Positions 891 to 64,000 of a stretch of DNA of 64,000 nucleotides are shown one piece after another. The DNA lies in assembly GCA_945906935.1 (NCBI GenBank), contig CAMDSO010000004.1:7427-71426 (forward strand), in the 5' to 3' direction. The notes below the pieces were generated by a model. That model made no database searches, was not told the origin of the DNA, and was given only the letters and a program-made list of their open reading frames with translations. Position 1 is the stretch's first letter. Each line of letters opens with the position of its first letter. This stretch comes from Bordetella parapertussis. GTDB taxonomy: Bacteria > Pseudomonadota > Gammaproteobacteria > Burkholderiales > SG8-41. The position numbers were made by a program, and so were the translations under genes.

Positions 891-972
891 CGTTTTTAAA
901 ACGCGCCGTGCCCTTCACCGCCCGCTTTTGACGGCGGATAGGGAATGCAAGACAGGAGGAGACAGGAGGAAT

Positions 973-1947
973 ATGAAGACCATGCTTAGGCTGCGTATTG
1001 CAGTGGGTTGCGTGTTGGCAGCGCTGCTGGCTGGCGCGCAGGCGCAGAATTATCCATCGCGTCCGATCCGATTTATCGTGCCGATCGCGGCCGGCGGTGG
1101 CGCTGACCTCGTGGCGCGCGTGATTGCGGAGCGCCTTTCCAGAAATCTGGGGCAGCAGGTCGTGGTTGAAAATCGTGCTGGTGGCGGTACTGTGATCGGT
1201 GCCGAACTCGTCGCGAGGTCTCCCGCTGACGGTTACACCTGGCTGCTCGGTACGGCGACCTCGCATGCTATTAACGCGAGTCTGGTCAAAAAGTTGCCAT
1301 ACGATCCGGTGAAAGACTTTGCGCCGATCGCGCTGGTGGCGGTGTTGCCACAGATTATTGTTATCCATCCCGCGCTGCCGGCGGCAAGCCTGACAGACTT
1401 CATCGCGCTGGCGAAGAAACGTCCGGGCGAAATTCTGTTTGGCTCACCCGGTAACGGCAGTAACAATCAGCTGGGTGCCGAGATGCTCAACATCGTCGCT
1501 GGCATTAAGACCCTGCACGTGCCCTACAAGGGGGCCGGCCCCGCGATCACCGATCTGCTCGCCGGTCATCTGCAATTTATGTTCACCACCATTCCACCCG
1601 CGCTGCCGCAGGTGAAAGCGGGGCGCCTGCGCGCGCTCGCAGTGGCGGGGGCAAAGCGCTCGGCGCTGCTGCCGGAACTGCCGACCACCGCCGAACAGGG
1701 CGCGCGTGGTGTGGAGGCCGCCTCGTGGAACGGCATACTGCTGCCGGCCGGTGCGCCGCGCGACATCATTACCCGTTTGCATGCAGAGATCGGCGTTGTG
1801 ATGAAGCAGCCGGAGGTGATCGAACGCCTCGCCGGTGCCGGCGTAGAGGCGGCGATGATGTCTCCTGAGGAATTCGCCGCCTATATCGAATCGGAAACCG
1901 CGCGTTATGCCAAAGTCGTTAAATCGTCCGGCGCGCGTGTGGATTAA
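973..1947 (+). CDS. Bug/TctC-family periplasmic tripartite tricarboxylate transporter substrate-binding protein
   Basis: ATG 973 after AGGAGGA. Signal peptide ends AQAQ, then NYPSRPIRFIVPIAAGGGAD, VENRAGGG, PADGYT, HVPYKGAGPA, GRLRALAV. Confidence 0.9.
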   Translation: MKTMLRLRIAVGCVLAALLAGAQAQNYPSRPIRFIVPIAAGGGADLVARVIAERLSRNLGQQVVVENRAGGGTVIGAELVARSPADGYTWLLGTATSHAINASLVKKLPYDPVKDFAPIALVAVLPQIIVIHPALPAASLTDFIALAKKRPGEILFGSPGNGSNNQLGAEMLNIVAGIKTLHVPYKGAGPAITDLLAGHLQFMFTTIPPALPQVKAGRLRALAVAGAKRSALLPELPTTAEQGARGVEAASWNGILLPAGAPRDIITRLHAEIGVVMKQPEVIERLAGAGVEAAMMSPEEFAAYIESETARYAKVVKSSGARVD

Positions 1948-2902
1948 ACGCAGCGCGTTCGTTTTGCTCGGCACCGGTGGCGCTTGCGCCGCCGCCGAAC
2001 CCGTCGACCTTTATCCGTCGCGGCCGTTGCGGTTTGTCGTCGGCTTCACGCCGGGCGGCGGTTCCGATCTGGTGGCCCGACTGCTCGGTCAGAAACTCAC
2101 TGAGAATTTGGGGCAGCCTGTGGTGGTCGACAACCGACCGGGTGCTGGCGGCAATCTCGCCAATGAAATCGTCGTTAAAGCCGCGCCCGATGCTTACAGC
2201 GTATTGATCGCCTCGTCGAGCTTCACCATACAGCCGGCGATCCACAACAACCTGAGCTACAAGCCGCAAATCGATTTCGCACCTGTCGTGCTCGCTAGTG
2301 CATCGCCTTATCTGCTGGTGGTGCATCCGTCGGTGCCGGCGCAATCGGTGAAGGAACTGATTGTGCTGGCGAAAGCACAGCCGGGCAAACTCAATTACGC
2401 CTCGGCCGGTGCTGGTAGCGCGCTGCATCTGGCCTCTGAGTTGTTCAAAAGTATGGCGGGTGTGGATATCGTGCATGTGCCGTACAAAGGTGCGAACGGC
2501 ATACCAGACCTCATCGCCGGTGCGGTGCAGGTAACGATCGCCGGTCCGCCACAGACCATGGTGCATGTGCGCGCCGGGCGCCTGCGTGCGCTGGCCGTTA
2601 CATCATCGAAGCGTGCGGCCGTCGCGCCGCAACTGCCGACTATCGCCGAAGCCGGTGTGCCGGGCTACGAAGTCGATTCCTGGTACGGCGCACTGTTGCC
2701 TGCTGCATCGCCGCGTGCGCGCATTGAAAAACTTGCCGCCGAAATCAACCGCGCACTTGCCAGCACCGATCTGCGCGAAAAATTGCTGGCGCAGGGGCTG
2801 GAGCCACGCGGCGGTAGTTCGGTGGAGTTTGCGGCGGTGATACGCGGTGATATTGCGAAGTGGACGAAGGTGGTTGCGGACGCCGGGATCAGGGCGGATT
2901 GA
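1907..2902 (+). CDS. Bug/TctC-family substrate-binding protein
   Basis: LYPSRPLRFVVGFTPGGGSD, VDNRPGAGG, HVPYKGANG, GRLRALAV, PTIAEAGVPGY. The start is either ATG 1907 or GTG 1937; both overlap the end of the upstream gene. Confidence 0.88.
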   Translation: MPKSLNRPARVWIKRSAFVLLGTGGACAAAEPVDLYPSRPLRFVVGFTPGGGSDLVARLLGQKLTENLGQPVVVDNRPGAGGNLANEIVVKAAPDAYSVLIASSSFTIQPAIHNNLSYKPQIDFAPVVLASASPYLLVVHPSVPAQSVKELIVLAKAQPGKLNYASAGAGSALHLASELFKSMAGVDIVHVPYKGANGIPDLIAGAVQVTIAGPPQTMVHVRAGRLRALAVTSSKRAAVAPQLPTIAEAGVPGYEVDSWYGALLPAASPRARIEKLAAEINRALASTDLREKLLAQGLEPRGGSSVEFAAVIRGDIAKWTKVVADAGIRAD

Positions 2903-2972
2903 CCTATGCGATTGATCAATCTTTTGTGCGCAGTATTTGTTTTCGATGTGACGAGTGCGCCTGGAGGCGTGA

Positions 2973-3019
2973 CTCCCTTCCTTGCGCGCGTACGCGCGGG
3001 GGAGGGCTGGGGTGAGGGC
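2973..3019 (+). repeat. G-rich hairpin repeat
   Basis: CTCCCTTCCTTGCGCGCGTACGCGCGGGGGAGGGCTGGGGTGAGGG. Confidence 0.6.
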
Positions 3020-3076
3020 GTACGCTCGTGCTATTTGCGTCTTCGTTTCTTGTTGGCCGGGGGCAGCCCGGCGGCT

Positions 3077-3110
3077 GGTTACTTTTCTTGCTTCGCCAAG
3101 AAAAGTAACC
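3077..3110. repeat. Perfect 14-bp inverted repeat GGTTACTTTTCTTG-N6-CAAGAAAAGTAACC within a long non-coding spacer
   Basis: Read directly from the sequence. It lies in the ~300-390 bp spacer between two Bug genes, which ORF 2906-4255 translates spuriously. Confidence 0.8.
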
Positions 3111-3196
3111 AAAAGAAGGCGACCCCCGGTTCGCCGGTCCTGCGGACTCCCCTGCGCTGCTCGCCGCGCCGGGCGGCTGCGGAACTCGCCCTCGCG

Positions 3197-4255
3197 ATGG
3201 AGCTGCGAGGGCTCAGACAGTCCTCGCCGACTGCCCCCGACACGGCTGCGCTGCTCGGCGGCTCTCAGGGGGAGGGAAAGGTTAAACCTCTAGTTTTTTC
3301 GTTGCTGGTGTTTATTGGCGCGCTGCATTGCTTTTGTAGCTCCATCGCGTTTGCAGCTACATATCCCGAACGCCCCCTAAGATTCCTGATCCCGTTTCCG
3401 CCCGGCGGTGGCGCCGATAATCTCGCGCGCATTGTCGCGGTGAATGCAGCTGAGTCGCTGGGCCAGCAGATCATCATCGACAACCGGGCGGGGGCGGGCG
3501 GCAATATCGCCGCCGAGACGGTGGCGAAGGCGGCGCCTGATGGTTATACCTTGCTGCAGTCAAATATTTCGCATGCCATCAGCGCCTCGTTGTATCGAAA
3601 CCTGAACTACGACCTGGCGCGCGATTTTGTCCACGTGACGCAGCTTGCATCGATTCCGTTCGCGCTGGCAACACATCCATCGCTGGGCGTTTCGACGGTG
3701 CGCGAACTGGTTGCAATGGTCAAGGCAAAGCCTGCGCAGTATGTCTATGCGTCGTCGGGCAACGGCGGGCCTAGTCACCTTGCAATGGAAATGTTCAAGA
3801 CGCTGAATGGCGTCGATATTCGCCACGTACCCTACAAGGGGGCTGCGGCGATTTCGACCGATCTCGTCGCCAATCAGGTGCAAATGAGTTTTTTTACCAC
3901 GGCCGGCCTTCTGCCCCTGATCAGTGGCGGGCGTGTCAGGCCGATTGCAATTGCGAGTGCCCGGCGTTCGGCTCTGGTGCCCGACCTGGCGACCTTTGGC
4001 GAACAGGGTATGCCGGGATTTGAAGCGACGACGTGGTTCGGTGTCAGTCTGCCAAAAGGTTCGCCGGCAGAGGCCGTGAAGCGTTTGCATGCGGTGTTTA
4101 CGCAGGCATTGAAAGTGCCGGAGGTGCGCGAGCGGCTGACCGCCCAAGGGTTTGACATCGTCGCTAGTACACCATCGGACTTCGATGCCTTTGTGCGTGC
4201 TGAAATGCATCGCTGGAGCAAAGTCGTGAAGGAATCGCGTGCGACCGTTGATTGA
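3197..4255 (+). CDS. Bug/TctC-family substrate-binding protein
   Basis: Mature part ATYPERPLRFLIPFPPGGGAD, IDNRAGAGG, APDGYT, HVPYKGAAA. ORF 2906-4255 has a spurious N-terminal extension across intergenic repeats. The true start is uncertain: ATG 3197, or TTG/GTG near 3300 after GGAGGGAAAGG. Confidence 0.85.
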   Translation: MELRGLRQSSPTAPDTAALLGGSQGEGKVKPLVFSLLVFIGALHCFCSSIAFAATYPERPLRFLIPFPPGGGADNLARIVAVNAAESLGQQIIIDNRAGAGGNIAAETVAKAAPDGYTLLQSNISHAISASLYRNLNYDLARDFVHVTQLASIPFALATHPSLGVSTVRELVAMVKAKPAQYVYASSGNGGPSHLAMEMFKTLNGVDIRHVPYKGAAAISTDLVANQVQMSFFTTAGLLPLISGGRVRPIAIASARRSALVPDLATFGEQGMPGFEATTWFGVSLPKGSPAEAVKRLHAVFTQALKVPEVRERLTAQGFDIVASTPSDFDAFVRAEMHRWSKVVKESRATVD

Positions 4256-4274
4256 GAGCGCAGATACAAAATCG

Positions 4275-4315
4275 CCCTCGTCCCGCGACAGCGGGGGGAG
4301 GGCAGGGGTGAGGGG
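4275..4315 (+). repeat. G-rich hairpin repeat
   Basis: CCCTCGTCCCGCGACAGCGGGGGGAGGGCAGGGGTGAGGGG. Confidence 0.65.
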
Positions 4316-4352
4316 CGGGCGGTTGCATGGTGCGCAGTGCATCCACATTCTG

Positions 4353-5354
4353 ATGCGTTTCCTTGTGGGAGTGACAGCGGGCGTGTCCGGTTTGATTTCA
4401 AGACCACTGCTCGGCATCGCGTGTGTATCGCTGGCCGTGGCTAGCAGCGCACAAGACTATCCGACGCGCCCCATCCGTTATGTCGTGCCCTTCACCGCTG
4501 GCGGTGGCGGCGACATCATCATCCGCGAAGTGGCGCAGCGCCTGACGGCGCGCCTCGGCCAGACGGTGATTGTTGACAACCGCGCCGGTGCCGGCGGCAG
4601 TCTTGGTACTGAAATCGTCGCGCGTGCCGCGCCCGATGGTTATACCTTGCTGATGGCCAATGTGGCGCCGATGGCGATCAATGTTAGCGTGTATAAAAAA
4701 CTCAACTACGATCCACTGAGGGATTTCGCGCCGGTGACGACGCTGGCGTCCTTCCCCAATATACTGGTTTTGCATCCGTCGGTGCCGGCGCAAACGCTGC
4801 CGCAGTTGATCGCGCTGGCGCGGGCGAAACCGGGGCAGCTGACTTACGCTTCGGCCGGCGCCGGCAGCACGACGCATCTGGCGGCGGAGTTTTTCAAGAG
4901 CCGCGCCGGCGTTGATTTGATCCATGTGCCGTACAAGGGCGGCGGCGCTGCGCTTATTGATTTGGTGGCGGGGCAGGTCACACTTTATTTCAGCAGTCTG
5001 CCGGCGGCCCTGCCGATGGTACGCAGCAACCGCTTGCGCGCGCTGGGTGTGACGGGGCTCGCGCGCGCTATCGCTGCGCCTGATGTGCCGACGATTGCCG
5101 AATCGGGCTTTCCCGGTTTCGAAGCGGTGACCTGGATCGGTGCAGTAGCGCCGGCCGCTACGCCACCGGCGATTATCACGCGACTCAATAAGGAACTCGT
5201 CGAGATCATGCAGGCCGCCGACATGCGCGACAAGATGATTGCGCAGGGCGCCGAACCGATGACCAATACGCCCGAACATTTCGCCGTCTATATCAAAACC
5301 GAAACTGCCAAGTGGGCGGCAGTGGTGAAGCAGGCGGGAATTGCGGCGCAGTGA
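4353..5354 (+). CDS. Bug/TctC-family substrate-binding protein
   Basis: ATG 4353 gives signal peptide MRFLVGVTAGVSGL...ASSAQ, then DYPTRPIRYVVPFTAGGGGD, VDNRAGAGG, HVPYKGGGAA, NRLRALGV. Confidence 0.9.
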   Translation: MRFLVGVTAGVSGLISRPLLGIACVSLAVASSAQDYPTRPIRYVVPFTAGGGGDIIIREVAQRLTARLGQTVIVDNRAGAGGSLGTEIVARAAPDGYTLLMANVAPMAINVSVYKKLNYDPLRDFAPVTTLASFPNILVLHPSVPAQTLPQLIALARAKPGQLTYASAGAGSTTHLAAEFFKSRAGVDLIHVPYKGGGAALIDLVAGQVTLYFSSLPAALPMVRSNRLRALGVTGLARAIAAPDVPTIAESGFPGFEAVTWIGAVAPAATPPAIITRLNKELVEIMQAADMRDKMIAQGAEPMTNTPEHFAVYIKTETAKWAAVVKQAGIAAQ

Positions 5355-6253
5355 TGACCGGTACGCCGCGTGAAATCGAACTGGTGATCGGCTTTTCGCC
5401 GGGTAGCATGTCGGATGACATCGCGAAATGTTTGATTGATGCGATGCGTTCTGAATGCGGCATCGCGCTCACGGTCACCCGCCGGCCCGGGGCCAACGGC
5501 GTCAACGCCGCGCGTCACGTCGCGGCATGTGCTGCTGACGGCGCGACGCTGTTCATGGCAACCCTCGGCACGCATGCCATCGCACCGCTGCTCAATACGC
5601 CCGCACCTTATGACCCGCTGCGTGATTTCGCAGCAGTCTCGCTGCTCACCCAATCGCCGATGCTGCTGGCCTGTCATCCGGCGCTGGGGGTGCGCTCGGT
5701 CGCTGATTTGATTGCGCGCGCGCGCGCTGAACCGCCGTTGACCTATGCGACCTCGGCGACTGGCGGTGCGCCGCATCTGGCCGCCGGGTTGTTCGAGTCC
5801 ATCACCGGTGTGCGTATGCGTCATGTGCGCTATGACGAGACCGAACGACTCTACCGCGATCTCGAAGCCGGCCGGGTGGATCTGAGCTTCAACAATATTG
5901 CCTCCATGTTGCCACGCTGCAAAGACGGCGGCTTGATTGCCCTGGGGGTGTCGACTGCCGCGCGCAGTGCCGCGGCGACTGAGTTACCGACGCTCGCCGA
6001 GGCCGGCGTATCGGGCTATGCGATGAGCAACTGGACCGGCATCGTCGCACCACCCGCTACGTCACCCGCAGTGACAGCGGCATTAAGCGAGGTGTTTGCC
6101 ACCGCATTGCGCGCGCCACCTGTCAGCGCATGGTTGAATGCACAGGGCGTCACCCCGCGCGGTAGCGCGCCAGGCGAACTGACGGACTTTATGCAGGCCG
6201 AAGGTGAACGCTGGCGCGCCGTGGTGGCGCGCATAACAGCGGCGAGGGTATGA
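5354..6253 (+). CDS. Divergent Bug/TctC-like protein without signal peptide
   Basis: ATG 5354 overlaps the upstream TGA (TGATG). It starts MTGTPREIELVIGFSPGSMSDD, directly at the position of the mature-protein motif. HVPYKG is degraded to HVRYDE. Family motifs retained: DPLRDFA, PTLAEAGVSGY. Confidence 0.75.
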   Translation: MTGTPREIELVIGFSPGSMSDDIAKCLIDAMRSECGIALTVTRRPGANGVNAARHVAACAADGATLFMATLGTHAIAPLLNTPAPYDPLRDFAAVSLLTQSPMLLACHPALGVRSVADLIARARAEPPLTYATSATGGAPHLAAGLFESITGVRMRHVRYDETERLYRDLEAGRVDLSFNNIASMLPRCKDGGLIALGVSTAARSAAATELPTLAEAGVSGYAMSNWTGIVAPPATSPAVTAALSEVFATALRAPPVSAWLNAQGVTPRGSAPGELTDFMQAEGERWRAVVARITAARV

Positions 6254-6293
6254 GATTGATCGTGGCAATCAAAGCGGTGAAGCTGGGATGCTG

Positions 6294-6316
6294 TGACGCT
6301 ATGACGCTATGACGCA
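6294..6316 (+). repeat. Tandem octamer TGACGCTA x3 (last copy TGACGCA)
   Basis: Read directly. It sits immediately upstream of, and overlapping, the first ATG of the selenoprotein candidate. Confidence 0.7.
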
Positions 6317-7946
6317 AAGGGAAATGACTATGAGTGACACGCAAATGGTTCTCGATCCGGTGGCGCCCGCCAGCGTGGCCGGTGACAGCGCGACTTTTCG
6401 TCCACTGGCAACACTGGCCGGCAAGGTCGTCGCTTTCATCGATAACTCGAAACCGAATTTCAGCTTGCTTGCCGACGATCTCGGCGAATTGCTGATGGCG
6501 AAATACGGGGTGGTGAAAATCGTCAGGCACCGCAAGCCGACCGCTTCGGTATCGGCCTCGCCGCAGGTGTTCGCCGATATCAAGCAGCAATGTGATCTGG
6601 TTATCACAGGCTCCGGCGACTGAGGGGGCTGCACGTCGTGGAGTGTCCACGACAGTGTAGAGGGCGCGAAGCAGGGTCTGAGTGCGCTGGTGGTGTGTTC
6701 GACTGCCTTTATTACGCTCGGTCGTTCGCAATTGCACGCGCTGGGTGGCGGTAGTTTGCCGATCGCCGTGATGCCGCATCCCTTTGGTGTGCGCACGCGC
6801 GCGCTGGTGCGTGAATTAGCGGAAACGCTGGTCGATGAGATTGTGCGTCTGGCCACCGGCGGCATCGATAAGACCGCGCAGGCGGTCAACGTCGGCAGTG
6901 CAATGATCACTGCTGCTGCGGTACTCGGCATGCCCAATGATTTGATCGCTTTCAATGAAGAATGTGAACGCCGCCGTTGGAGCGATGGCTTGCCGCTGAT
7001 TCCACCAACGGAATCGCGGGTCGAACAGATGCTGACCGGCACACAGCGCGCGCGGCACGCGGTAGTCGCCCGTGTGGCACCGGGTTTCGGCGAGGCGACT
7101 GTGGAACGCATCGCCATTAACGCCGTGATGGCCGGCTGCCGTGCAGAATATCTGCCGGTGTTGATGGCTGCGGTCGAGGCGGTAGCTGATCCGCGGTTCA
7201 ATATTCAGGGCATACAGGCGACCACCAATTCAGCGGCGCCGTGGATCATCGTCAACGGACCGTTGGCGACGCAACTGGGTTTTAACGCAGGACTTAATTG
7301 TCTGGGCCAGGGCACACGCGCCAACGCCACGCTGGGGCGCGCGCTGCGGCTTGTTCTACAAAACATCGGCGGTGCCTTGCCCGGTGAAATGGACAGGGCC
7401 ACGCACGGCCAGCCCGGCAAGTACAGCTTCTGCTGCGCCGAGAATGAAGCGGCCAGTCCGTGGACACCGCTGCATGCCGAGCGCGGTTTTGCGAATGATG
7501 AAAACGTCGTCACCGTGGTGGGTGCTGCGGGTACGTTAAATCTGAATTCGCATTCAAAAGACGCCGCCGATCTGCTGCGTGTGATCGCCGCCAGCATGAG
7601 CTATCCGACCAGCAACGACATGCACTTTGCCGGCGAACCCTGGCTGATTCTGTCGCCTGAGCACGCCGACGTGTTCGCACGTGGCGGCTACGACAAGGTC
7701 ACCCTCAAAGAGTCGATCTGGGCGCAGTCGAAGATGCCCGCTGCTCGTTTCGCGCGCAAGGATTACGATCGCGCCGAACACGCGCGTAGCAGCGAACTTG
7801 GCGGCTTTGCCGTGGATACGCTGGTGCCGATTTCACCGAGTCCGCGTGATATCGGCATCATCGTCGCCGGCGGCCCCGGCACCCACTCGGTCTATGTGCC
7901 AACTTTTGGACAGACGCGCGCGGTATCGCGTCGCATCGGCGCATGA
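6309..7946 (+). CDS. Candidate selenoprotein: U-G-x-C (UGSC/GrdB-like) N-terminal domain fused to an uncharacterised ~420-aa domain. TGA 6621-6623 is read as Sec.
   Basis: ORFs 6309-6623 and 6690-7946 share one frame and are separated only by TGA 6621-6623. Residues on both sides of the TGA (..ITGSGD-U-GGCTSWSVHDSVEGAKQGLSALVVCSTAF..) are homologous to the paralogue at 63684-64000(-). A SECIS-like hairpin begins 11 nt downstream. The likely start is ATG 6330 (after AGGGAA) or ATG 6309. Confidence 0.6.
6624..6660 (+). promoter_or_regulatory. Putative bacterial SECIS element
   Basis: Upper helix GTCGTGGA/TCCACGAC (6635-6642 / 6646-6653) with GUG apical loop. A lower helix spans 6629-6634 / 6555-equivalent 6655-6660 with bulged A6654. 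There is an 11-nt spacer after the UGA. Loop G and U fall at +23/+24 from the U of UGA. Confidence 0.6.
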
Positions 7947-8899
7947 TGACGCGCCTGTTGTGTGCGCTGGCTTTGGTGTTGCCGGTGGTCGCCGCGTCGG
8001 CTGCGGAATATCCCGAGCGTGCAGTACGGGTGATCGTGACCTTTCCGGCCGGGGGCGGCACCGACATCGTTGCGCGCATGGTGTTTCAAAAAGTTGCCGA
8101 GCGCAGCGGCGCGACCTTCGTAATCGATAACCGCGGCGGTGCGGGCGGCACCATCGGTACCGATCTGGCGGCGAAAGCAGCACCCGATGGTTATACGATC
8201 GTGGTGGTCAGCGGTAGCCACACGATTAATCCAGCGCTCTACAAGAAGCTGCCGTTCGACAGTGTGCGCGATTTCGCGCCAGTGGCGATGCTGGTGACCG
8301 GCCCCGGTCTGCTGGTCGTGCATCCGTCGCTGCCGGCGCGCAATGTGCGCGAATTGATTGCGCTGGCGCGTAGTCAGCGTGGTGGCCTGCTCTATGCCTC
8401 GGCGGGCAACGGCACGCCGCCGCATCTGGCTGCTGAACTCTTTAAGCTGATGACTGCCACGCAGATCGCGCATGTTCCCTACAAAGGTAATGCGCAGGCG
8501 ATGACCGATCTGATCGCCGGGCAGATCGCTTTGTCATTTCCGACCATCCCGTCGGCCTTGCCGCATGTGCAAACGGGCAAGCTGCGCGCCATGGGTGTGA
8601 CCAGTGCAAAACGCGTTGGCGCGCTGCCGGAGATTCCGGCGATTGCTGAAACGGTGACGGGTTACGACGGCAGTGCGTGGTATGGCGTGCTCGCCCCCGC
8701 CGGCACGCCGGCCGCCATCGTCACACGCCTGCATACGGAGTTAATGACGGCACTGCGTACACCCGATCTCAAAGACAAACTGGTTTCGCAGGGCCTCGAG
8801 CCGGCGTCGTATATGCCGGAAGAGTTTTCCGCACTGATCGTCAGCGAACTCGCCAAGTGGGCGAAGGTGGTAGCGGCTGCGGGTGTCAAAAACGAATAG
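7943..8899 (+). CDS. Bug/TctC-family substrate-binding protein
   Basis: ATGA start/stop overlap with the upstream gene (7943-7946). AAEYPERAVRVIVTFPAGGGTD, IDNRGGAGG, HVPYKGNAQA, GKLRAMGV. Confidence 0.9.
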   Translation: MMTRLLCALALVLPVVAASAAEYPERAVRVIVTFPAGGGTDIVARMVFQKVAERSGATFVIDNRGGAGGTIGTDLAAKAAPDGYTIVVVSGSHTINPALYKKLPFDSVRDFAPVAMLVTGPGLLVVHPSLPARNVRELIALARSQRGGLLYASAGNGTPPHLAAELFKLMTATQIAHVPYKGNAQAMTDLIAGQIALSFPTIPSALPHVQTGKLRAMGVTSAKRVGALPEIPAIAETVTGYDGSAWYGVLAPAGTPAAIVTRLHTELMTALRTPDLKDKLVSQGLEPASYMPEEFSALIVSELAKWAKVVAAAGVKNE

Positions 8900-9847: not shown

Positions 9848-10810
9848 ATGCATAAAAAAATTATTTGCGCCGCGCTTTGGACAGTGACGGTGACTTACGG
9901 CCCTGCCATTGCGCAGGAATATCCGACCAAACCGATTCGCTACATCGTGCCCTTTGGTGCCGGCGGACCGACCGACACGCAAGCGCGCTGGGTCGCGCAA
10001 AAACTCAATGCAGCCTTCGGCCAGACGGTGATTGTTGATAACCGGCCGGCGGCCGGCGGCGTGCCGGGCACTGCGGCGGTGGCGAAGGCGGCCCCCGACG
10101 GCTACACGCTGCTGGCCGGTAATCCGGGCCCGTTGACGGTGGCGCCGGCGATTTCGCTGAACGTGCCCTATGACCCGCTGCGTGATTTCACGCCAGTGAC
10201 GCTGGTGGCGAAAAGCCCCAGCGTGCTGATCGTGCATCCGGCGCTACCGGCAAAAAACGTCAGGGAGTTCGTCGCGCTCGCCAAAGCGCGTCCGGGTAAA
10301 CTCAACTACGGCACGCCGGGGGTGGGCACCGTCGGCCATCTTTCGACCGAGGCTTTCGCGCATCTCACCGGCATCAATGTCATGCACGTGCCCTATAAGG
10401 GCGGTGTGAGCCAGTACACGATAGAACTGATTTCCGGTTACATTGATTTCGCTTCGCTGCAACTCTTTAACGTCGCGCCCATGGTTAAGCAGGGCAAGCT
10501 GCGCGCCCTCGGTATCACCTCGCGCGAGCGCTCGCCGGCGATGCCGGAGCTGGCGACCTTCAACGAGCAGGGTGTGAAATTCGAGAACTACAATTGGAAC
10601 GGTGTGCTGCTGCCGGCGAAAACGCCGCCGGCGATCGTGGCGCGGATCTACGGTGTGCTGGCCGCCGCGATCAAGGAAAACCGCGAGCTTTTTACCGGGC
10701 AGGGGCAGGAGCCTGGCGGCGAGAACAGCGAGCAATTCAGCGAGTTTTTGCGTGCGGAAATCGAGCGCTATGAAAAAGTCGCACGGGCTGCGAATATTCC
10801 AAAACAATAA
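9848..10810 (+). CDS. Bug/TctC-family substrate-binding protein
   Basis: Signal peptide, AQEYPTKPIRYIVPFGAGGPTD, VDNRPAAGG, HVPYKGGVSQ, GKLRALGI. Confidence 0.9.
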   Translation: MHKKIICAALWTVTVTYGPAIAQEYPTKPIRYIVPFGAGGPTDTQARWVAQKLNAAFGQTVIVDNRPAAGGVPGTAAVAKAAPDGYTLLAGNPGPLTVAPAISLNVPYDPLRDFTPVTLVAKSPSVLIVHPALPAKNVREFVALAKARPGKLNYGTPGVGTVGHLSTEAFAHLTGINVMHVPYKGGVSQYTIELISGYIDFASLQLFNVAPMVKQGKLRALGITSRERSPAMPELATFNEQGVKFENYNWNGVLLPAKTPPAIVARIYGVLAAAIKENRELFTGQGQEPGGENSEQFSEFLRAEIERYEKVARAANIPKQ

Positions 10811-12163: not shown

Positions 12164-13120
12164 TTAATCTTCGCGAATACCGGCGTCGCGGATGACCTTC
12201 CCCATCCGCGACATTTCCGTTTTCATCGCCGCCGTGAATTGTTCGGGCGTGCTGCCGACCACTTCAACGCCGACGGCGAGAAATTTTTCGCGGGCGTCGC
12301 TGCTGTGCAGATAACGCATGATTTCCTGACTGAGCTTTTGCAGAATCGGCGCCGGTACCCCGGCTGGTGCGAACACGCCTTGTAGCGAGCTTGATTCGTA
12401 ACCGGGCAGGCCCGCAGCCGCGATGGTAGTAAGGCCCGGTAGCAAGATCGATTCACGTGCACTGGAGACGCCGAGTGCGCGCAGGCGGCCGGTTTTCAGA
12501 TGTGGGCTCACCGAGCTCGCGGTGGCGAAACTAAGCTGGATTTGTCCGCCGATGAGATCGGTGAGTGCCGCACCCGCCCCCTTGTAGCTGATGCGCACGA
12601 ATTGCACGCCGGCCATTGCTTGGAACAGTTCGGCAGCGAGATGCGGTGACGAACCGATACCGGTGGTGCCGTAATTCAACGCGCCCGGTTTGGCTTTCGC
12701 CAATGCGACTAATTCCTTCACGTTCTTCACCGGCAGCGAGGGATGTACAACCAGAATATTGGGCGCCGTGGCGGCCAGCGAGATCGGTGCGAAATCGCGC
12801 AGCGGATCGGGCGCGTTGGCGCGTAGATAAGGCCCCAGCCACACGGTGCTGCCATAGAGCATGAGCGTGTAACCGTCGGCCGGTGATTTGACGGTGACCT
12901 CGACCGGGATCGGCCCGCTGGCGCGATTGTCGACGATGACCTGCTGGCCGAGGGCGGGCGCGATGCCCTGCGCGACCAAGCGTGAGGCGACATCCCCCGC
13001 GCCGCCCACCCCCGAGGTGATGATGCGAATCGGTTTGGCCGGAAAGCTTTGTGCCTGCTCGGTAGAGGCGGCCGTTAACACGAGGGCGGAGACGAGCGAC
13101 CATTGGATCGGTTTGTACAT
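12164..13120 (-). CDS. Bug/TctC-family substrate-binding protein
   Basis: ATG 13120 gives MYKPIQWSLVSALVLTAASTEQAQ, then SFPAKPIRIITSGVGGAGD, VDNRASG, PADGYT, SYKGAGAA, GRLRALGV. The rest of ORF 12164-13783 is an antisense extension over the CMD gene. Confidence 0.88.
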   Translation of the reverse strand: MYKPIQWSLVSALVLTAASTEQAQSFPAKPIRIITSGVGGAGDVASRLVAQGIAPALGQQVIVDNRASGPIPVEVTVKSPADGYTLMLYGSTVWLGPYLRANAPDPLRDFAPISLAATAPNILVVHPSLPVKNVKELVALAKAKPGALNYGTTGIGSSPHLAAELFQAMAGVQFVRISYKGAGAALTDLIGGQIQLSFATASSVSPHLKTGRLRALGVSSARESILLPGLTTIAAAGLPGYESSSLQGVFAPAGVPAPILQKLSQEIMRYLHSSDAREKFLAVGVEVVGSTPEQFTAAMKTEMSRMGKVIRDAGIRED

Positions 13121-13234
13121 GTAAAGTTTTGCGCACCAAGCGCCGCGTGAAAAGGCTGCGATTGAAGCATGCGATGGGCATGGCGCGCAACGCGCGATGC
13201 TACACTCGCCGCGTTTGCGATCAGGAGAGCCGCT

Positions 13235-13885
13235 ATGAAGCCGCGCGTTTGGGGGAACGAACCGACACCGGACACGCAGACCACGCGTGGTTATCCGCCT
13301 GACGTCCATCGCGACTCGTCGTCGCGCCTGCCGCCGGTGCGGCGCGAAGATCTTGATGAGACGGGGCAGCGCGCTTACGACGCAATGACCGAGGAAGGCA
13401 GCAAGCTGCGCGCGAGCCTGCGCGGCCCGACCGGTTTCTGGTTGCATATGCCTGAAGTTATCGGCCACGTACGCGAACTCAACTGGAGTCTGCGTAACCG
13501 CGAAAATGGTCTTGCGCGTCCGCTGCGTGAACTGACGATACTCGTCACCGCGCGCGCCCACGATTGTCAGAAGGAATGGACGGCGCATAAAATGCACGCG
13601 CTCGATGCCGGCCTTGATCCGGCGCTCATCGATATCATCCGGTATTGCAAGCCAACGCACGGTGTGGCGGAAACTGAAGCGGCCATCATCAGCTTCGGTC
13701 GCGAATTGTTTCGTGATAAAAAGGTTTGTGCTGCGACCTATGCGCAGGCCTTGAAGGTGCTCGGCCAGCAGCGGCTCGTACACATGGTCGCGCTGATGTC
13801 GAATTACACGATGACGGCGGTGATTTTTGCCGCCCTCGATCAGCAGGTCGCGCCCGATCAGACGCCGTTGTTGCCTTTGTCTTAA
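13235..13885 (+). CDS. Carboxymuconolactone decarboxylase (AhpD-like) family protein
   Basis: ATG 13235 after AGGAGA. RELTILVTARAHDCQKEWTAHKMHA is a CMD-domain pattern. Confidence 0.8.
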   Translation: MKPRVWGNEPTPDTQTTRGYPPDVHRDSSSRLPPVRREDLDETGQRAYDAMTEEGSKLRASLRGPTGFWLHMPEVIGHVRELNWSLRNRENGLARPLRELTILVTARAHDCQKEWTAHKMHALDAGLDPALIDIIRYCKPTHGVAETEAAIISFGRELFRDKKVCAATYAQALKVLGQQRLVHMVALMSNYTMTAVIFAALDQQVAPDQTPLLPLS

Positions 13886-13949
13886 ACCGTAATACGGTCG
13901 GCGGTTATAATTTCACTCTTGCAATGTGGCTTTTTTAACGGAGACATGT

Positions 13950-14933
13950 ATGAAAATGACTAAGCTTGGAATAATGCGCGGCGGCCTGGCTGCCGTGGCG
14001 ATGACAGCAGCTTGCGCCGGATTTGCGCAGGCGCAAACCTATCCGGTCAAATCGATCCGCATGATCTTTCCGTTTCCGCCCGGCGGGCCGACCGATCTGC
14101 TGGGGCGCGCGATTGCGCAGAAGATGTCGGATCAAATCGGGCAGCAGGTAGTGGCTGATAACCGTCCCGGTGCCGGCGGCAACCTCGGTCTTGAGTTGGC
14201 GGCCAAATCGCCGGCCGATGGCTACACCATCGTGCTGACTTCACCGTTGATTGCACTCGGCCCGCTGCTCTACTCCAAACTCAATTACGATTCGTTCAAG
14301 GATTTGCAGCCGCTGTCGTTGGTGGCAACGATTCAAAACGTATTGTTGGTGCATCCGAGTGTGCCGGCGAAGACGCTGAAAGAATTGGTCCAGATTGCCA
14401 GCAAGAGCCCCGGAAAATTGAGTTATGGCTCGGGTGGCGTAGGCACCACGACGCATCTCGCACCGGAACTGATGAAGAGCCTGACCAAAACCAGTATTGT
14501 GCATGTACCTTACAAGGGCTCGGGCCTCGCGCTGATCGGTTTAATGGGTGGCGATGTGGATGTGTTGATCATGGCGGTACCGGCCTCGGCGCCGCAGGTG
14601 CAAAGCGGCAAGGTGAGGGCGCTGGCGGTGCTCTCTGACAAACGCGCCACTGCGCTGCCCACTGTGCCGACGACCAAAGAGGCCGGCTTCGAGGGTCTTG
14701 AGGTGCCGATATGGTATGGGATACTGACGACGACCGGCACACCTAAAGACATCGTCGCGCGTCTGCATTCGGAACTGGTCAAAGCCCTGACATCGGTGGA
14801 ACTCAAAGAGCGCCTGATCTCAGCCGGCATCGAGCCGATGCAAAGCACGCCCGAACAATTCGCCGCCTTTATCCGTAGCGAGAACACACGTTTTGCCAAA
14901 GTGATCAAGGACGCTGGCATCAAGCCGGAGTAG
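13950..14933 (+). CDS. Bug/TctC-family substrate-binding protein
   Basis: ATG 13950 (MKMTKLGIMRGGLAAVAMTAACAGFAQAQ), TYPVKSIRMIFPFPPGGPTD, ADNRPGAGG, HVPYKGSGLA, GKVRALAV. Confidence 0.9.
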   Translation: MKMTKLGIMRGGLAAVAMTAACAGFAQAQTYPVKSIRMIFPFPPGGPTDLLGRAIAQKMSDQIGQQVVADNRPGAGGNLGLELAAKSPADGYTIVLTSPLIALGPLLYSKLNYDSFKDLQPLSLVATIQNVLLVHPSVPAKTLKELVQIASKSPGKLSYGSGGVGTTTHLAPELMKSLTKTSIVHVPYKGSGLALIGLMGGDVDVLIMAVPASAPQVQSGKVRALAVLSDKRATALPTVPTTKEAGFEGLEVPIWYGILTTTGTPKDIVARLHSELVKALTSVELKERLISAGIEPMQSTPEQFAAFIRSENTRFAKVIKDAGIKPE

Positions 14934-16936: not shown

Positions 16937-17608
16937 GGGTAGTTTCCAAATCGAATTCCAGCTATTGGCGAGAGTATGGACGGATTTGGCGCCCGAACCT
17001 GGTGCAAACTGGTTTTACCGGCGGCAAACTTGCTAGCGCATGCTTGATGGATTTGGTGGTCGCGTTAGAAAAAAGTCCACGATGGCTATCGCGTTTTGTT
17101 CGCCATGAGTCTTGGTTCATTTAGCGCTTTAAGAGGCGACTTTCTAAAGCATCCTAAAGCTAAGTAACTATAACCGAGATGAATCTCAAAATTATTACAG
17201 TAGTATTAATTTAATCATGTTAACGACGAGTCGATAGATTCGCTAAAAGCCTTTTATCGCTTCTGGTTTTCGATCCCCCTGGCCCAGCGCCGCATCGGCG
17301 GCTGGTCCTGTCGTCGCTGGTCGAACACCCTATGACGTCATGCTCGGTGTGCGCGTTATTCGCTTTATGCGCCATGGATTCGTGGGGCCAAGCTGGGTGT
17401 ATGTCATCGCGTCAGCCTCCCCCATTCGTTTGAAACTTGATGGATTGATCGCCGACCAGGTGCCGAACCAGCGACGGATTTCGCACACTATGGGGTGCGG
17501 ATGCGCCCATAGCTGTTATGAGCAGACCCGGCAAGGGGGCTTTAACCAAAGCCTGCGTAATCGTAACGCCTTGATGATGCGCTATAGTTGGCGCCCACGG
17601 AGGTCATC

Positions 17609-18580
17609 ATGTTCAGTATTCGAAGCGCCGCTATCGTTTGCGGTACGTTGTTGTTGCCCGCCATCGCGGCCGCCCAGTCCGATCATTATCCGTCGCGGTC
17701 GGTACGACTGGTCACCCCCTTTCCGCCCGGTGGCAGTGTGGATGTGATCGCCCGCCTGATCGCGCCAAAGTTGTCCGAATCGCTGGGTAAGCCGGTGGTG
17801 GTCGACAACCGCACGGGTGCCTCGGGCAATATCGGCACCGAATTGACCGCGCGCGCGCCGGCCGATGGCTATACGCTGCTGATTAACACGCTGCCTCTGG
17901 TGACGAATATTTTCATCATGAGTCGTGTACCCTACGATCTGCAAAACGATTTCGAGCCGGTCTGCCTGCTCTCATCTTCGTCGGCCATACTCGGTGTGCA
18001 CCCGTCGTTACCGGTGCGCAATACCAAAGACCTGCTGGAGTTGGCGCGTTCGAAACGCGGCACGCTGAACTACGGCACGGCGGGTATCGGCACCAATCCG
18101 CATATTGCCGGCGAGTTGTTCAATTATCTCGGCAAGACCAACATCGTTGCCGTGCATTACAAGGGCGGCGGTCCGAGCCTGATTGCGGCGATCAGTGGCG
18201 AGGTGACGGTGACGTTCGCCAATACCCCCGAGACCATGCCTTATGTCGACGCCAAGCGTTTGCGTGGGCTAGCGATCAGCAGTCTGAAGCGGCGCGCCAA
18301 TCTGCCTGATCTGCAGACCGTCAGTGAAAGCGGTGTTCCTGGGTATGAGTTTCTGACCTGGCACGTCATCATGGCGCCCAAGGCTACGCCGCGGCCCGTG
18401 GTCACGCTGTTGAACGAGCGTCTGCGCAAGATCCTCAATACGCCGGAGCAAAGCCAGCAGTTGTTACAGAAGGGTATCGACGTCATCGGCGCCTCGCCCG
18501 AGGAGACGGCTGCGCACCTTAAGCGAGAAATGGAGAAGTGGAGCCGCGTCGTCAAGGAGCGCGGCATCCGCGCTGAGTAA
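17609..18580 (+). CDS. Bug/TctC-family substrate-binding protein
   Basis: ATG 17609 after GGAGG. Signal peptide, then DHYPSRSVRLVTPFPPGGSVD, VDNRTGASG, VHYKGGGPS, KRLRGLAI. Confidence 0.9.
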   Translation: MFSIRSAAIVCGTLLLPAIAAAQSDHYPSRSVRLVTPFPPGGSVDVIARLIAPKLSESLGKPVVVDNRTGASGNIGTELTARAPADGYTLLINTLPLVTNIFIMSRVPYDLQNDFEPVCLLSSSSAILGVHPSLPVRNTKDLLELARSKRGTLNYGTAGIGTNPHIAGELFNYLGKTNIVAVHYKGGGPSLIAAISGEVTVTFANTPETMPYVDAKRLRGLAISSLKRRANLPDLQTVSESGVPGYEFLTWHVIMAPKATPRPVVTLLNERLRKILNTPEQSQQLLQKGIDVIGASPEETAAHLKREMEKWSRVVKERGIRAE

Positions 18581-19256: not shown

Positions 19257-19640
19257 ATGTTTCAGGACGCAACGGCGCTCGATACCGCCGGCAGGTTATG
19301 CATTGTATTTTTCTTTTTGGCGGCCGCGATAGGCAATATGACGCCACAGAAAATCAAGGATCATATTGACCGTATGGCGGCGGCCCACACGCCGCTGCCG
19401 AAGCTGGCGTTCTGGTTCGGTATTTTTCTACAATTTTCGGGTTGCGCGCTGTTGCTCAGCGGCTGGCATGCCGATATCGGCGCCTGGTTTTTAATTGTAT
19501 TTACGATTGCGGCGACGGCGATCTTTCATCGCTTTTGGCAGGTCAGCGATCCGATGCGACGCAATATTGGCCGCATCATGTTCCTGAATAACACGGCTAT
19601 TCTTGGCGGCTTGTTCTTGCTGTTGCAGAACGTGCGATGA
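19257..19640 (+). CDS. DoxX family membrane protein
   Basis: 127 aa with about 4 hydrophobic helices. FHRFW and FLNNTAILGGLFLL resemble DoxX signatures. Its stop overlaps the next start (ATGA). Confidence 0.65.
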   Translation: MFQDATALDTAGRLCIVFFFLAAAIGNMTPQKIKDHIDRMAAAHTPLPKLAFWFGIFLQFSGCALLLSGWHADIGAWFLIVFTIAATAIFHRFWQVSDPMRRNIGRIMFLNNTAILGGLFLLLQNVR

Positions 19641-20656
19641 ATTGGATGCCTGAGATGCATCTATCCCGCGATCTGCTGCGCGCTTCACGGACTATGGGCT
19701 GGCGCGTCGCGGGCGTAGTGGCTTGCGCGTTTACGGTTGGCAATGCGTTGGCGCAGAATTTTCCAGCGAAGGTGGTGCGTTACGTCGTGCCGTTCACCGC
19801 TGGCAGCGGGGCTGATACGCTGGCCCGCATCGTCGTGCCCGGCATCGGACAGGTACTCGGTCAGCAGGTGATTGTCGACAACCGCGGCGGTGCGGCGGGC
19901 AATATCGGTGCCGAGCAGGCGGCACGTGCCGCGCCCGATGGCTATACGCTGATGCAGGCGGGGATGCCGCTGGCTGCCAATATGAGTCTCTACAAAAATC
20001 TAAGCTACGAACTGTCGCGCGATTTCACCGCGGTTTCCCAGTTGGTGCAATCGCCGAACATGCTGGTGGTGCATCCCTCGTTGCCGGCGAAATCGGTCAA
20101 GGATCTGATTGCGCTGGCGAAGGCGAAGCCCGGTGCGATTAATTATTCCTCCTCTGGCGCAGGTTCGACGATTTACCTGTCATTCGAATTTTTCAAGGGC
20201 ATGGCCGGAGTTGATATCGTGCATGTGCCCTACCGTGGTGGCGCCGAAGCGGTGACCGCCATCGTCTCGGGTGAAACCTCGGTGAGCTTTCTGCCGCTCG
20301 CCACCGCCCTGCCACAGACGCGTCAGGGCCGCTTGCGCGCGCTGGCGGTGTCGACCGCGAAACGGGTGCCGTCATTGCCGGAATATCCGACGCTGGCCGA
20401 GGCGGGCGTACCAGGTTTTGAATTCGCCACCTGGTACGGTGTGATGGCGCCGGCAAAAACGCCGCGCGAAATCATCGCTGTTTTGCAGGCGGCGACGGTG
20501 GCGTCGTTGCGCAATCCCGAGGTGCTGCGCCGCCTCAATGATTTGGGATACATCACGGTGGGCGATACGCCCGATGTTTTTCAGGCTTACGTCAAATCTG
20601 AGGTCGAACGGCTCGGCAAACTGATACGCGCCTATAAGCTGGCGGTTGATGGCTGA
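19637..20656 (+). CDS. Bug/TctC-family substrate-binding protein
   Basis: ATGA overlap with the DoxX gene. AQNFPAKVVRYVVPFTAGSGAD, VDNRGGAAG, HVPYRGGAEA, GRLRALAV. An alternative start is ATG 19694. Confidence 0.88.
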   Translation: MNWMPEMHLSRDLLRASRTMGWRVAGVVACAFTVGNALAQNFPAKVVRYVVPFTAGSGADTLARIVVPGIGQVLGQQVIVDNRGGAAGNIGAEQAARAAPDGYTLMQAGMPLAANMSLYKNLSYELSRDFTAVSQLVQSPNMLVVHPSLPAKSVKDLIALAKAKPGAINYSSSGAGSTIYLSFEFFKGMAGVDIVHVPYRGGAEAVTAIVSGETSVSFLPLATALPQTRQGRLRALAVSTAKRVPSLPEYPTLAEAGVPGFEFATWYGVMAPAKTPREIIAVLQAATVASLRNPEVLRRLNDLGYITVGDTPDVFQAYVKSEVERLGKLIRAYKLAVDG

Positions 20657-51329: not shown

Positions 51330-51500
51330 GACGATGTCCTTTGCGGAGTTGAGATGCGCGCCTGATGGTGCGTCTGCGCTAAATTTTACCGCAGACGTGT
51401 TTTGCTGAAACACAAGCAGGCGCGTATGGAGTAGAGTAGGGAGCTAAAAGTAATACAGGCTGGCCTGCAACGGGCCGGTTAAAAAAACAGGGGGAGAACC

Positions 51501-62571: not shown

Positions 62572-63687
62572 TCAGCCTTGCCTGAAATCCTGTACCGATT
62601 TTGCGAGCGCGCCGTCGCGTGTTTTAAGGGCACGTGTCACCGCCTGCGTGGCGCCAAAGGTGTGTATATAGGCGGAGTGTTTGCCGGCGCCGCCGATGAC
62701 AACGACGATCAAATCCTGCGCGCGCTGTATCATCGGCACCAGGGCGTCGAGTGGCGCGGTGGCAAAGCGGTCGGCGATCTTGACGCGCAAACGGCGCTCG
62801 ATGTTTTCTTTGGAAAATTTTCCTAGCGGCAGCTGGCCGTGCGCCTGCAGAAATTTTTTTACATCCATCTTCGACAGACCGTCCTGGGCCACGGTCTTCG
62901 CGTGTTCGGGCCCGAATACGGCGACCGGCTGCGCTTCGTAGCAGGGATCGTTCGATCCGGCATCCATCATGGTGCCGGCAATGGTGGTGAGGATACCCTC
63001 GGCGTTAAGGCTTTCATGATCATTGACGTTGTGCGGACACTCCGCACCGACCACCGTGACGGTGCTCGCTTCGCGCGGAAAGCCGCGCTCGACGTGCAGC
63101 GGTTCCCACGGGCTTTCATCTTCATTTTCGGCGACGAAGTAGCAGTATTTGGCCGGCGAACCGAAAGTCGACATATCCCCGGTTTTTGGGATGGCGCCGC
63201 CAATGTTGACCAGTGCGAGACGAATGGCGCGGCCGATCGTCGCATTGCTCTGCGTGCCGGGGCCGAAGGCGTTGTGCCCGCCATTGATACCGAGTTCTTT
63301 GATTACCGGGCCGTTGACGATCACCAGCGGCGCGCACATATGCGTGGTCGCCTGGATGCCATAGAGATTGAAGGGCTCCTCGCACATCGCCTCGATGGCG
63401 AGCATGAAGAGCGGAAAATATTCGGGCCGGCAGCCGGCCATCACCGCATTGGCGGCGAGACGCAGCGGCGTGGCCTCGCCCCAGCGCGGTGGAATCTTCG
63501 CGATGGGTTCATCCCAAGGCCGGTCGCAATAGGCCAGCATTTTTTCAACGCGCGCCTCGGTTGGTGGCACGATCGGCAGACCGTCGGTCCAGCCACGCTC
63601 GAGATAGAGCGCGTTGATTGCTTCGAAATCATCCTCGGCGTCGATGCTGGCGCCGTCGTTCTTCAGCAGGTCGTTGAGATGGCTCAC
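62572..63687 (-). CDS. Uncharacterised partner protein, homologous to the C-terminal domain of the 6309-7946 fusion
   Basis: GTG 63687 overlaps the upstream TGA (GTGA). It shares GWTDGLPIVPPTEARVEKML, AANAVMAGCRPEY, YGIQATT, SNATIGRAIRLALVNIGGA, SPWEPLHVERGF and VVIGGAGKHS with residues ~190-545 of the fusion. Confidence 0.8.
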   Translation of the reverse strand: MSHLNDLLKNDGASIDAEDDFEAINALYLERGWTDGLPIVPPTEARVEKMLAYCDRPWDEPIAKIPPRWGEATPLRLAANAVMAGCRPEYFPLFMLAIEAMCEEPFNLYGIQATTHMCAPLVIVNGPVIKELGINGGHNAFGPGTQSNATIGRAIRLALVNIGGAIPKTGDMSTFGSPAKYCYFVAENEDESPWEPLHVERGFPREASTVTVVGAECPHNVNDHESLNAEGILTTIAGTMMDAGSNDPCYEAQPVAVFGPEHAKTVAQDGLSKMDVKKFLQAHGQLPLGKFSKENIERRLRVKIADRFATAPLDALVPMIQRAQDLIVVVIGGAGKHSAYIHTFGATQAVTRALKTRDGALAKSVQDFRQG

Positions 63688-64000
63688 GACAGATGGTCCT
63701 TGATAAGTTTGATCACCTGCGGAATGGCGACGAGCGCGCGGCCCTGCACTTGTTCGAGCGACAAACCGCCGAGCGGATGCGCGATCATCACCAACGGCAG
63801 CGTTGGTACACCAAGCACGCGCGCCTGCGTCGAGCCGAGTGTGCGGAAAGGATCGGAGCAGATCACCGCGGCGAGCACGCCACGTTTATGCATCTGGGTC
63901 ATGTCGTGGACACTCCACGACGTGCAGGCCCCTCAATCGGCCATCGCGCAGATGACCACGTCGGCTTCCGTCGACAATTGGTCCAGCACCTCCTGCGTCG
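63684..64000 (-). CDS. Candidate U-G-x-C selenoprotein (partial; the 5' end lies beyond the window). TGA 63933-63935 is read as Sec.
   Basis: The minus frame reads ..TQEVLDQLSTEADVVICAMAD-U-GACTSWSVHDMTQMHKRGVLAAVICSDPFRTLG..VMIAHPLGG.. This is collinear with the 6309 locus across the TGA. ORF 63684-63902 is only the post-UGA part. Confidence 0.6.
63903..63932 (-). promoter_or_regulatory. Putative bacterial SECIS element (second copy)
   Basis: On the minus strand, GTCGTGGAGTGTCCACGAC (63921-63903) begins exactly 11 nt after the UGA. It is identical to the hairpin at 6635-6653. Confidence 0.6.

Follow-up and report, generated by a model that had tools for sequence, protein, structure and literature searches.

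A probable selenoprotein of the UGSC family, read through an in-frame UGA and joined to an uncatalogued partner domain

The stretch of DNA analyzed here, 64,000 nucleotides (nt) of contig CAMDSO010000004.1 in the Bordetella parapertussis assembly GCA_945906935.1, is referred to below as the window, and its features are collected in Table 1. Near its beginning lies a gene that is very probably translated as one selenoprotein, with selenocysteine (Sec) at an in-frame UGA. Counted from ATG 6309, positions 6309-7946 of the plus strand form a single frame of 545 codons whose sole internal stop is TGA 6621-6623, just as an earlier note on this DNA had described from its letters. The two in-frame open reading frames (ORFs), 6309-6623 (104 amino acids, aa) and 6690-7946 (418 aa), are the pieces into which that note expected gene callers to divide the gene, and in public gene calls the Sec forms are indeed split throughout, into ORFs of 95-109 aa and 418-430 aa. 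The 22 codons from the TGA to GTG 6690, the first possible restart, read GGCTSWSVHDSVEGAKQGLSAL, and the residues around the putative Sec are VITGSGD-U-GGCTSWSVHDSVEGAK. The gene ends at TGA 7944-7946, that is, TGA also serves as its normal terminator, and we therefore reject a reassigned genetic code as the cause of the in-frame TGA. The start is ambiguous because a short direct repeat (GACGCTAT GACGCTAT GACGC, 6296-6316, plus strand), just upstream of and across ATG 6309, supplies extra in-frame ATGs. ATG 6330 appears to be the likelier start; a Shine-Dalgarno sequence (AAGGGA) stands 8 nt upstream of it, and it agrees with the N-termini of homologs. Two ORFs on the opposite strand, 6299-7201 (300 aa) and 6189-6779 (196 aa), overlap the gene and are presumed to be GC-rich artefacts.

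Table 1. Coordinates of the features discussed in the text; (-) marks the minus strand where several genes share a line.
Feature	Position	Strand	Remarks
Complete selenoprotein gene, UGSC plus partner domain	6309..7946	+	One internal TGA; homologs match residues ~3-543 across the stop
UGSC domain, residues 14-183	6348..6857	+	Pfam PF24696; predicted flavodoxin-like alpha/beta fold
In-frame UGA, putative Sec codon, U of U-G-G-C	6621..6623	+	TGA in 74/75 loci; Cys in 58/58 of the non-Sec clade
Bacterial SECIS-like hairpin, 8-bp stem GTCGTGGA/TCCACGAC, loop G-U-G	6635..6653	+	11 nt after the UGA
Partner domain, ~345 aa, uncatalogued	6903..7943	+	Residues ~200-545; without Pfam, NCBIfam or PDB relative
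TctC/Bug-type carboxylate-binding protein gene	7943..8899	+	PF03401, E = 7.5e-75; its ATG overlaps the selenoprotein gene stop
Stand-alone partner-domain gene, 371 aa	62572..63687	-	45% identical to the fused C-terminal domain, BLASTP E = 4e-103
Paralogous stand-alone UGSC selenoprotein gene (putative)	63684..64000	-	UGA 63935-63933; stop TGA 63686-63684; N-terminus cut by the window end
TctC/Bug genes	928-6253, 7943-8899, 9848-10810, 12164-13783(-), 13926-14933, 17588-18580		
TctC/Bug genes, continued	19637-20656, 22324-23292(-), 50358-51413(-), 59522-60535		

The half of the protein that contains the TGA belongs to the UGSC family, as the earlier note had suggested. With Sec written as Cys, the Pfam model PF24696 (UGSC) matches with E = 5e-40 and 137.9 bits against a gathering score of 25; the match runs from profile position 2 to 171 of 172, and the model spans the stop. 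In NCBIfam the only match is NF041046, "UGSC family (seleno)protein", with 103.8 bits for the full protein and 107 for the domain alone (U as C). UGSC-containing proteins were reported in 2007 as selenoproteins whose function was not known (Zhang & Gladyshev 2007/2008), the reference protein being ABI76733.1 of Hyphomonas neptunium, and reviews up to 2026 still list their function as unknown. In the Global Ocean Sampling (GOS) data, 255 Sec forms stood against 21 Cys forms (PMC2398784). Section 9 and Fig. S1A of the same paper present a "UGSC/Unknown_1" fusion, in which UGSC is joined to a conserved domain that has at least one conserved Cys and also occurs as a separate protein (PMC2398784). 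The fusion studied here is alike in that a single Cys of its partner domain (C277) is invariant and that the domain can also stand alone. Unknown_1 is the obvious candidate for our partner domain. The window gene shares with the known family the domain, the U-G-x-C motif, the alternation of Sec and Cys and the predominance of Sec forms; it is a further member of that family, with an architecture already noted. The earlier note thus overrated its novelty: the family and a fusion of UGSC with an unknown domain were published in 2007-2008, and NCBI already names close relatives, some of them fusions, "UGSC family (seleno)protein".

A second locus of the same kind lies at the far end of the window, where the earlier note had placed a paralogue. 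It is a second copy of the UGA with its hairpin, but it stands on the minus strand, is cut by the window end and is unfused, consisting of a UGSC gene and a separate partner-domain gene whose GTG start overlaps the UGSC stop (GTGA). Its hairpin (63921-63903, minus strand) is identical to that of the fused gene. Around the TGA the paralogue reads DVVICAMAD*GACTSWSVHDMTQMHKRGVLAA, to be compared with DLVITGSGD and GGCTSWSVHDSVEGAKQGLSAL in the fused gene, so that both flanks of the TGA align as had been claimed.

In a scan of one genome per species, at least 594 loci encoding relatives were found, of which 80 were kept and 75 could be aligned at the Sec column. Most of the kept loci match straight across the stop, over the residues given in Table 1, and their hosts include Betaproteobacteria/Burkholderiales, Rhodospirillaceae, Rokubacteria, Methylomirabilota, Chloroflexota, Dormibacterota, Binatia, Acidimicrobiales and others. 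The earlier note had suggested looking for Cys or TGA at this column, and both were found: the codon is TGA in 74 of the 75 loci and TGC in one (L080), and in a separate large clade of uninterrupted fusions of ~530 aa it encodes Cys in every sequence (58/58), within the motif C-F-G-D-C-G-T-S. The two window genes carry U-G-G-C (fused) and U-G-A-C (paralogue). Coding conservation that continues past the TGA, with Cys in the remaining relatives, upholds the claim that conservation across the stop reflects read-through. Several metagenome-assembled genomes hold at least two paralogous Sec-type fusion genes (L022/L032, L024/L033, L014/L038), and two further loci, L008 and L054, lie ~17 kb apart on one 648-kb contig (CAWHFX010000015.1); multiplication of the module within a single genome seems to be common.

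Downstream of the UGA, the sequence GTCGTGGA-GTG-TCCACGAC, inside the codons for T-S-W-S-V-H-D, can form a perfect 8-bp stem with a 3-nt loop or, alternatively, 7 bp with a 5-nt loop. Counting the U of the UGA as 1, the loop G and U fall at +23 and +24. The earlier note had compared this spacing with that of the selenocysteine insertion sequence (SECIS) of fdhF, and the published geometry agrees: in the minimal SECIS of Escherichia coli fdhF an upper stem-loop stands 11 nt from the UGA with G23 and U24 in its apical loop (PMC8659212), and the window hairpin has the same spacing and the same loop. Local folding of positions 6615-6680 gives a minimum free energy of -27 kcal/mol and z = -2.0, which is modest taken alone, and the weight of the hairpin argument therefore rests on comparative data. 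Within the window, a TGA followed after 11 nt by such a hairpin occurs in two places and no others (6621-6653, plus strand; 63935-63903, minus strand), against 0.00 expected from 100 dinucleotide-preserving shuffles. In a gap-free alignment of 77 sequences the stem is paired in ~99% of cells, the 11-nt spacing is identical in all 77, and the loop G and U (alignment columns 29 and 30) are invariant while the third loop base varies freely. The stem also shows compensatory changes at alignment pairs 21/39 and 24/36. The basal pair turns from G-C to A-U in L036 through two synonymous changes (ACG to ACA, GAC to GAT), and the fourth pair does the same in L077, L081 and L085 (TCG to TCA, CAC to CAT) and is G-U in two sequences. 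Furthermore, codon entropy is 0-0.35 bits over codons +4 to +10, compared with 0.9-1.9 bits in flanking codons of equally conserved residues, and synonymous sites are frozen, with Ser+7 written AGT in 74/74 and Val+8 written GTC in 46/46. Judged from these alignments, the hairpin is under selection at the RNA level, beyond selection on the protein. The lower stem that the earlier note proposed, extending the hairpin to 6629-6660, does exist in the window sequence, but 6629-6634/6655-6660 are paired in only ~50-70% of relatives, and we reject it as part of the conserved element and regard it as lineage-specific.

The hairpin is, as far as the compared sequences indicate, linked to the UGA and absent from Cys forms. 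Over nt 12-36 the mean folding energy is -12.6 kcal/mol in 81 Sec-type sequences versus -3.1, -7.5 and -1.9 kcal/mol in three Cys-type genes, and Cys-type stand-alone UGSC proteins keep C-G-G-C-T-S-W-S with A-L-D in place of V-H-D, the residues that encode the 3' arm. One Cys-type stand-alone UGSC gene (CGGCTSWSALD; L088 3838-3874) has a weaker and different hairpin (-7.5 kcal/mol) at the SECIS position, which may be a relic of a recent conversion from Sec to Cys.

The C-terminal part of the protein is a domain of its own. It was described earlier as an unrecognized domain of ~420 aa; it does lack a match, but its size is ~345 aa, as the 418-aa ORF also holds the C-terminal third of UGSC and a linker. 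Profile searches of the two halves, as had been proposed, returned PF24696 for the N-terminal half, and for the C-terminal half gave no Pfam or NCBIfam match at E ≤ 5 (33 family members) and no PDB relative by sequence profile. Among representatives clustered at 50%, an exhaustive HMMER search with the partner family finds 7,312 with E ≤ 1e-3 and 2,235 with E ≤ 1e-30, and the family extends across many phyla. Its invariant residues are D226-G-L-P, N271, C277, T306, N326, N330, D362, K371, E378, E451-H452 and H526, C277 (in A-V-M-A-G-C) being the only invariant Cys. Members of the family stand alone, form tandem doubles or are fused to UGSC, the fusions being UGA-truncated, full Cys-type or in reverse order. 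In the reverse-order fusions P0277, P0285 and P0293 the ORFs end exactly at the Sec column, and in L088, where the module order is likewise reversed, UGSC is the Cys form. We looked at three genes that encode the partner alone, and immediately upstream of each, overlapping it by 4 nt, stands a UGSC gene that an in-frame stop cuts in two. The domain is an obligate partner of UGSC, with which it is fused, reverse-fused or encoded in adjacent, translationally coupled genes. Four proteins of ~700-740 aa (P0271, P0336, P0339, P0413) contain two or three matched partner stretches with no Pfam match and no UGSC domain, and look like tandem duplications of the partner domain.

Structure prediction bears on the nature of both halves. 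We modeled with AlphaFold2 a natural Cys-type fusion, P0146, which is 41% identical (predicted local distance difference test, pLDDT, 91.8; predicted template modeling score, pTM, 0.91), and the window's own C-terminal domain (pLDDT 92.8, pTM 0.92). In the P0146 model the UGSC half is a doubly wound, five-stranded sheet of five beta-alpha units, resembling flavodoxin, and the Sec/Cys position would lie between strand 3 and the N-terminus of the next helix, in the middle of a compact domain. The literature has guessed at a thioredoxin-like fold for UGSC. Foldseek finds weak PDB neighbors of this half (template modeling score, TM, ~0.2) of flavodoxin-like or nucleophile-elbow type, such as MccF/LD-carboxypeptidase and DJ-1-like proteins, and no thioredoxin fold is among the 50 matches listed. 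UGSC is predicted from these models to be flavodoxin-like rather than thioredoxin-like. The best match of the partner domain is 6uqn_A, a class-I fumarate hydratase (E = 4e-4, TM 0.24, root-mean-square deviation 17.6 Å). We rejected the assignment of the domain to that enzyme class, considering the TM of 0.24, the lack of a Pfam match and the single invariant Cys versus three [4Fe-4S] ligands; a Toblerone fold was also rejected, PDB fold matches reaching only TM ~0.2.

The earlier note had likened the motif to the Sec site of the reductases GrdB and PrdB, and the likeness is real but weak. Aligned by hhalign to seven PrdB sequences, UGSC brings its U and C into register over 49 columns, at a probability of 20.6% and E = 1.1e-3, which falls short of significant homology, and PF07355 (GRDB) gives no Pfam match even at E ≤ 5. 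In both kinds of protein a hydrophobic strand leads to U-x-x-C where a helix begins, with a G-[IV]-P-T-V strand after it, and by analogy each would act with a separate substrate-binding partner polypeptide. They differ in that PrdB and GrdB pair with the pyruvoyl-type subunits PrdA and GrdE in anaerobes that ferment amino acids, whereas UGSC has no such partner; neither a pyruvoyl PrdA/GrdE subunit nor GrdA/C/D or a Prd operon is found among the neighbors in the window or in the related loci. Judged by their taxonomy and gene context, the hosts of UGSC appear for the most part to be aerobic Betaproteobacteria rich in TctC.

What these proteins do may be sought in their neighborhoods. TctC, a periplasmic carboxylate-binding protein, is the commonest neighbor in the related loci (28 of 87 flanking ORFs), and MmgE/PrpD, CitMHS, hydantoinase A/B, Amidohydro_2, CoA-transferase III and FMN-dependent dehydrogenase genes recur, which by analogy suggests a setting in organic-acid metabolism. 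A single conserved enzymatic neighbor was considered and rejected. MmgE/PrpD genes stand near the fusion in three distant lineages (L001 4498-5880; L005 8087-9505, minus strand; L089 11217-12593), with hydantoinase A/B genes recurring in L005 and L089; the scanned ORFs of the window include neither MmgE/PrpD nor hydantoinase A/B genes. Other neighbors are redox proteins. P0347 (L093 5226-7313), present in two assemblies (L093, L094), is a fusion of the partner domain with an entire low-Mr thioredoxin reductase (TIGR01292, 331 bits, C-A-V-C-D); the gene immediately before it is a UGSC gene of the Sec type whose hairpin is the same. In L095 (5247-6517), Fer4 and CCG (HdrB-like) genes follow a UGSC-partner pair, and Pyr_redox_2 genes are among the neighbors in related loci. 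Because of the thioredoxin-reductase fusion, the Fer4/CCG genes and the Pyr_redox_2 neighbors, we regard a redox role for the Sec/Cys center as plausible, with a confidence that stops a little short of even. P0347 and its upstream Sec-UGSC gene resemble known systems in which reductase, carrier and enzyme are fused or clustered; they differ from thioredoxin relays in that UGSC is not predicted to have a thioredoxin fold, and no thioredoxin reductase gene adjoins either of the window's two loci.

In the mechanism that we propose, UGA 6621 would be decoded as Sec under the direction of the minimal fdhF-type SECIS downstream. The UGSC domain would present a U-x-x-C selenol/thiol pair at a helix start as a redox-active center, and the partner domain would bind the substrate, probably an organic acid imported via TctC or CitMHS systems. 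The Sec/Cys pair would then cycle via a selenenylsulfide, to be re-reduced by a system of the thioredoxin-reductase or Hdr type. A two-part seleno-oxidoreductase is the most likely function. The fuller picture, in which UGSC and its partner form a widespread two-component selenoenzyme with a new catalytic fold, recycled by thioredoxin reductase or Hdr and acting on organic acids taken up by TctC or CitMHS, is tentative and in our view rather doubtful, and the same holds for its extension, by which the module would be an analogue of glycine/proline reductase B in mostly aerobic bacteria, working with no pyruvoyl subunit.

Several alternatives concern the decoding of the UGA itself. If the TGA were a true stop, the locus would hold two genes or a decaying pseudogene, with a 104-aa fragment and a 418-aa protein starting at GTG 6690. 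Gene callers give exactly these two ORFs in every public assembly, and TGA works as a normal stop at other places in the window, the end of this very gene among them; yet the 22 codons between TGA and start are conserved as protein in 74 loci from several phyla, uninterrupted 530-aa homologs have Cys at the column, the Pfam model runs across the TGA, the column falls at the center of a single compact domain in the AlphaFold2 model, and stand-alone UGSC genes carry the same in-frame stop, so that this reading is highly improbable. That sequencing or assembly turned a TGC/TGT Cys codon into this TGA by mistake deserves next to no credence: a single-base change would produce the Cys form, and such forms exist (L080), but the same TGA is seen in two window paralogues and in 74 independent assemblies, always with a hairpin that Cys forms lack. 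Read-through without Sec, whether a near-cognate tRNA inserted Trp or Cys or the hairpin acted without SelB, is also improbable; in its favor, and against our own reading, stand two observations. None of selA, selB, selC and selD is among the scanned ORFs, and ARAGORN reports no tRNA, tRNA-Sec included, in the window, a length of 64 kb that cannot show their absence and makes the tRNA result uninformative. The E. coli fdhF element has a bulged U17, which E. coli SelB needs (PMC8659212), whereas the window hairpin has at position 17 a C that pairs with G within its perfect 8-bp stem. Further against our own reading, Rfam yielded neither a SECIS nor any other RNA family, whether the entire window was searched at the gathering score or 6560-6720 at E ≤ 10, so that the search with a SECIS model recommended by the earlier note came back empty. 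The NF041046 scores likewise lie below the equivalog cutoff of 125. The window protein also differs from the known family in its motif, U-G-G-C as opposed to U-G-S-C. Against read-through without Sec stand the established status of the family as selenoproteins, with the Sec and Cys counts from the GOS data cited above (PMC2398784), the presence of Cys at the column in every relative that lacks the UGA, the classic signature of Sec/Cys exchange, and a spacing and G23/U24 as in the SelB-binding SECIS (PMC8659212). The best explanation of the whole is very probably that the locus is one selenoprotein gene of ~540 residues, in which the UGA encodes Sec and a UGSC domain is combined with its obligate partner.

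Given Sec decoding, the use to which Sec is put is a separate matter, and here a non-redox role is a serious rival. Sec may act as the nucleophile of a covalent catalyst, seated on a nucleophile elbow, for instance in a Michael addition or in an isomerase or lyase reaction whose unsaturated di- or tricarboxylate substrate is bound to the partner domain; we consider this unlikely, though by no means negligible. The strand-nucleophile-helix geometry of the predicted flavodoxin-like fold would fit covalent non-redox catalysis equally well, and the Foldseek neighbors of the UGSC half are nucleophile-elbow domains. The sole, weak structural echo of the partner domain is a class-I fumarate hydratase, and MmgE/PrpD, TctC and CitMHS genes recur nearby. 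The large non-Sec clade reads C-G-T-S, without the second Cys of U-x-x-C, and a simple dithiol-type cycle at U-x-x-C would for that reason not be universal in the family. As for the redox relay, its support comes from one fusion cluster, present in two assemblies, and from a few neighborhoods, and beyond TctC the neighborhoods are heterogeneous. On the other side, every structural match stays at TM ~0.2, the thioredoxin-reductase fusion and the Hdr-like neighbors point to redox turnover, and an additional Cys at -4 in the non-Sec clade (C-F-G-D-C) could serve as a resolving Cys. We favor the two-part seleno-oxidoreductase over covalent catalysis.

The rest of the window is rich in genes for substrate binding. 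It holds at least 14 TctC/Bug periplasmic carboxylate-binding genes within 64 kb, of which five form a tandem row immediately before the selenoprotein gene, and several more ORFs of ~320-340 aa are probably further TctC copies; many TctC copies are typical of Burkholderiales-type genomes. Three consecutive paralogous genes for pyrroloquinoline quinone (PQQ)-dependent dehydrogenases with beta-propellers lie at 51501-53165, 53293-54954 and 54746-56644 (plus strand). Two CMD/AhpD-like (PF02627) proteins are encoded at 13169-13885 (plus strand) and 40222-41154 (minus strand); AhpD-like proteins are a known selenoprotein family (CxxU).

To what was published on UGSC, this analysis adds a quantified SECIS consensus, evidence from several arrangements for an obligate partner, a count of the partner family, a predicted flavodoxin-like fold and the fusion with thioredoxin reductase. 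Annotation routinely cuts this gene, like its paralogue and hundreds of relatives, into two "hypothetical" ORFs, and the invariant signature TGA-N11-GTCGTGGAGTNTCCACGAC could allow such split ORFs to be re-joined automatically. The constant pairing of UGSC with its partner, the occasional fusion to thioredoxin reductase and the predicted fold lead to a testable three-component redox hypothesis for an orphan family. If true, the picture of a two-component selenoenzyme given above would assign a function to an orphan selenoprotein family that is among the most abundant in aquatic metagenomes.

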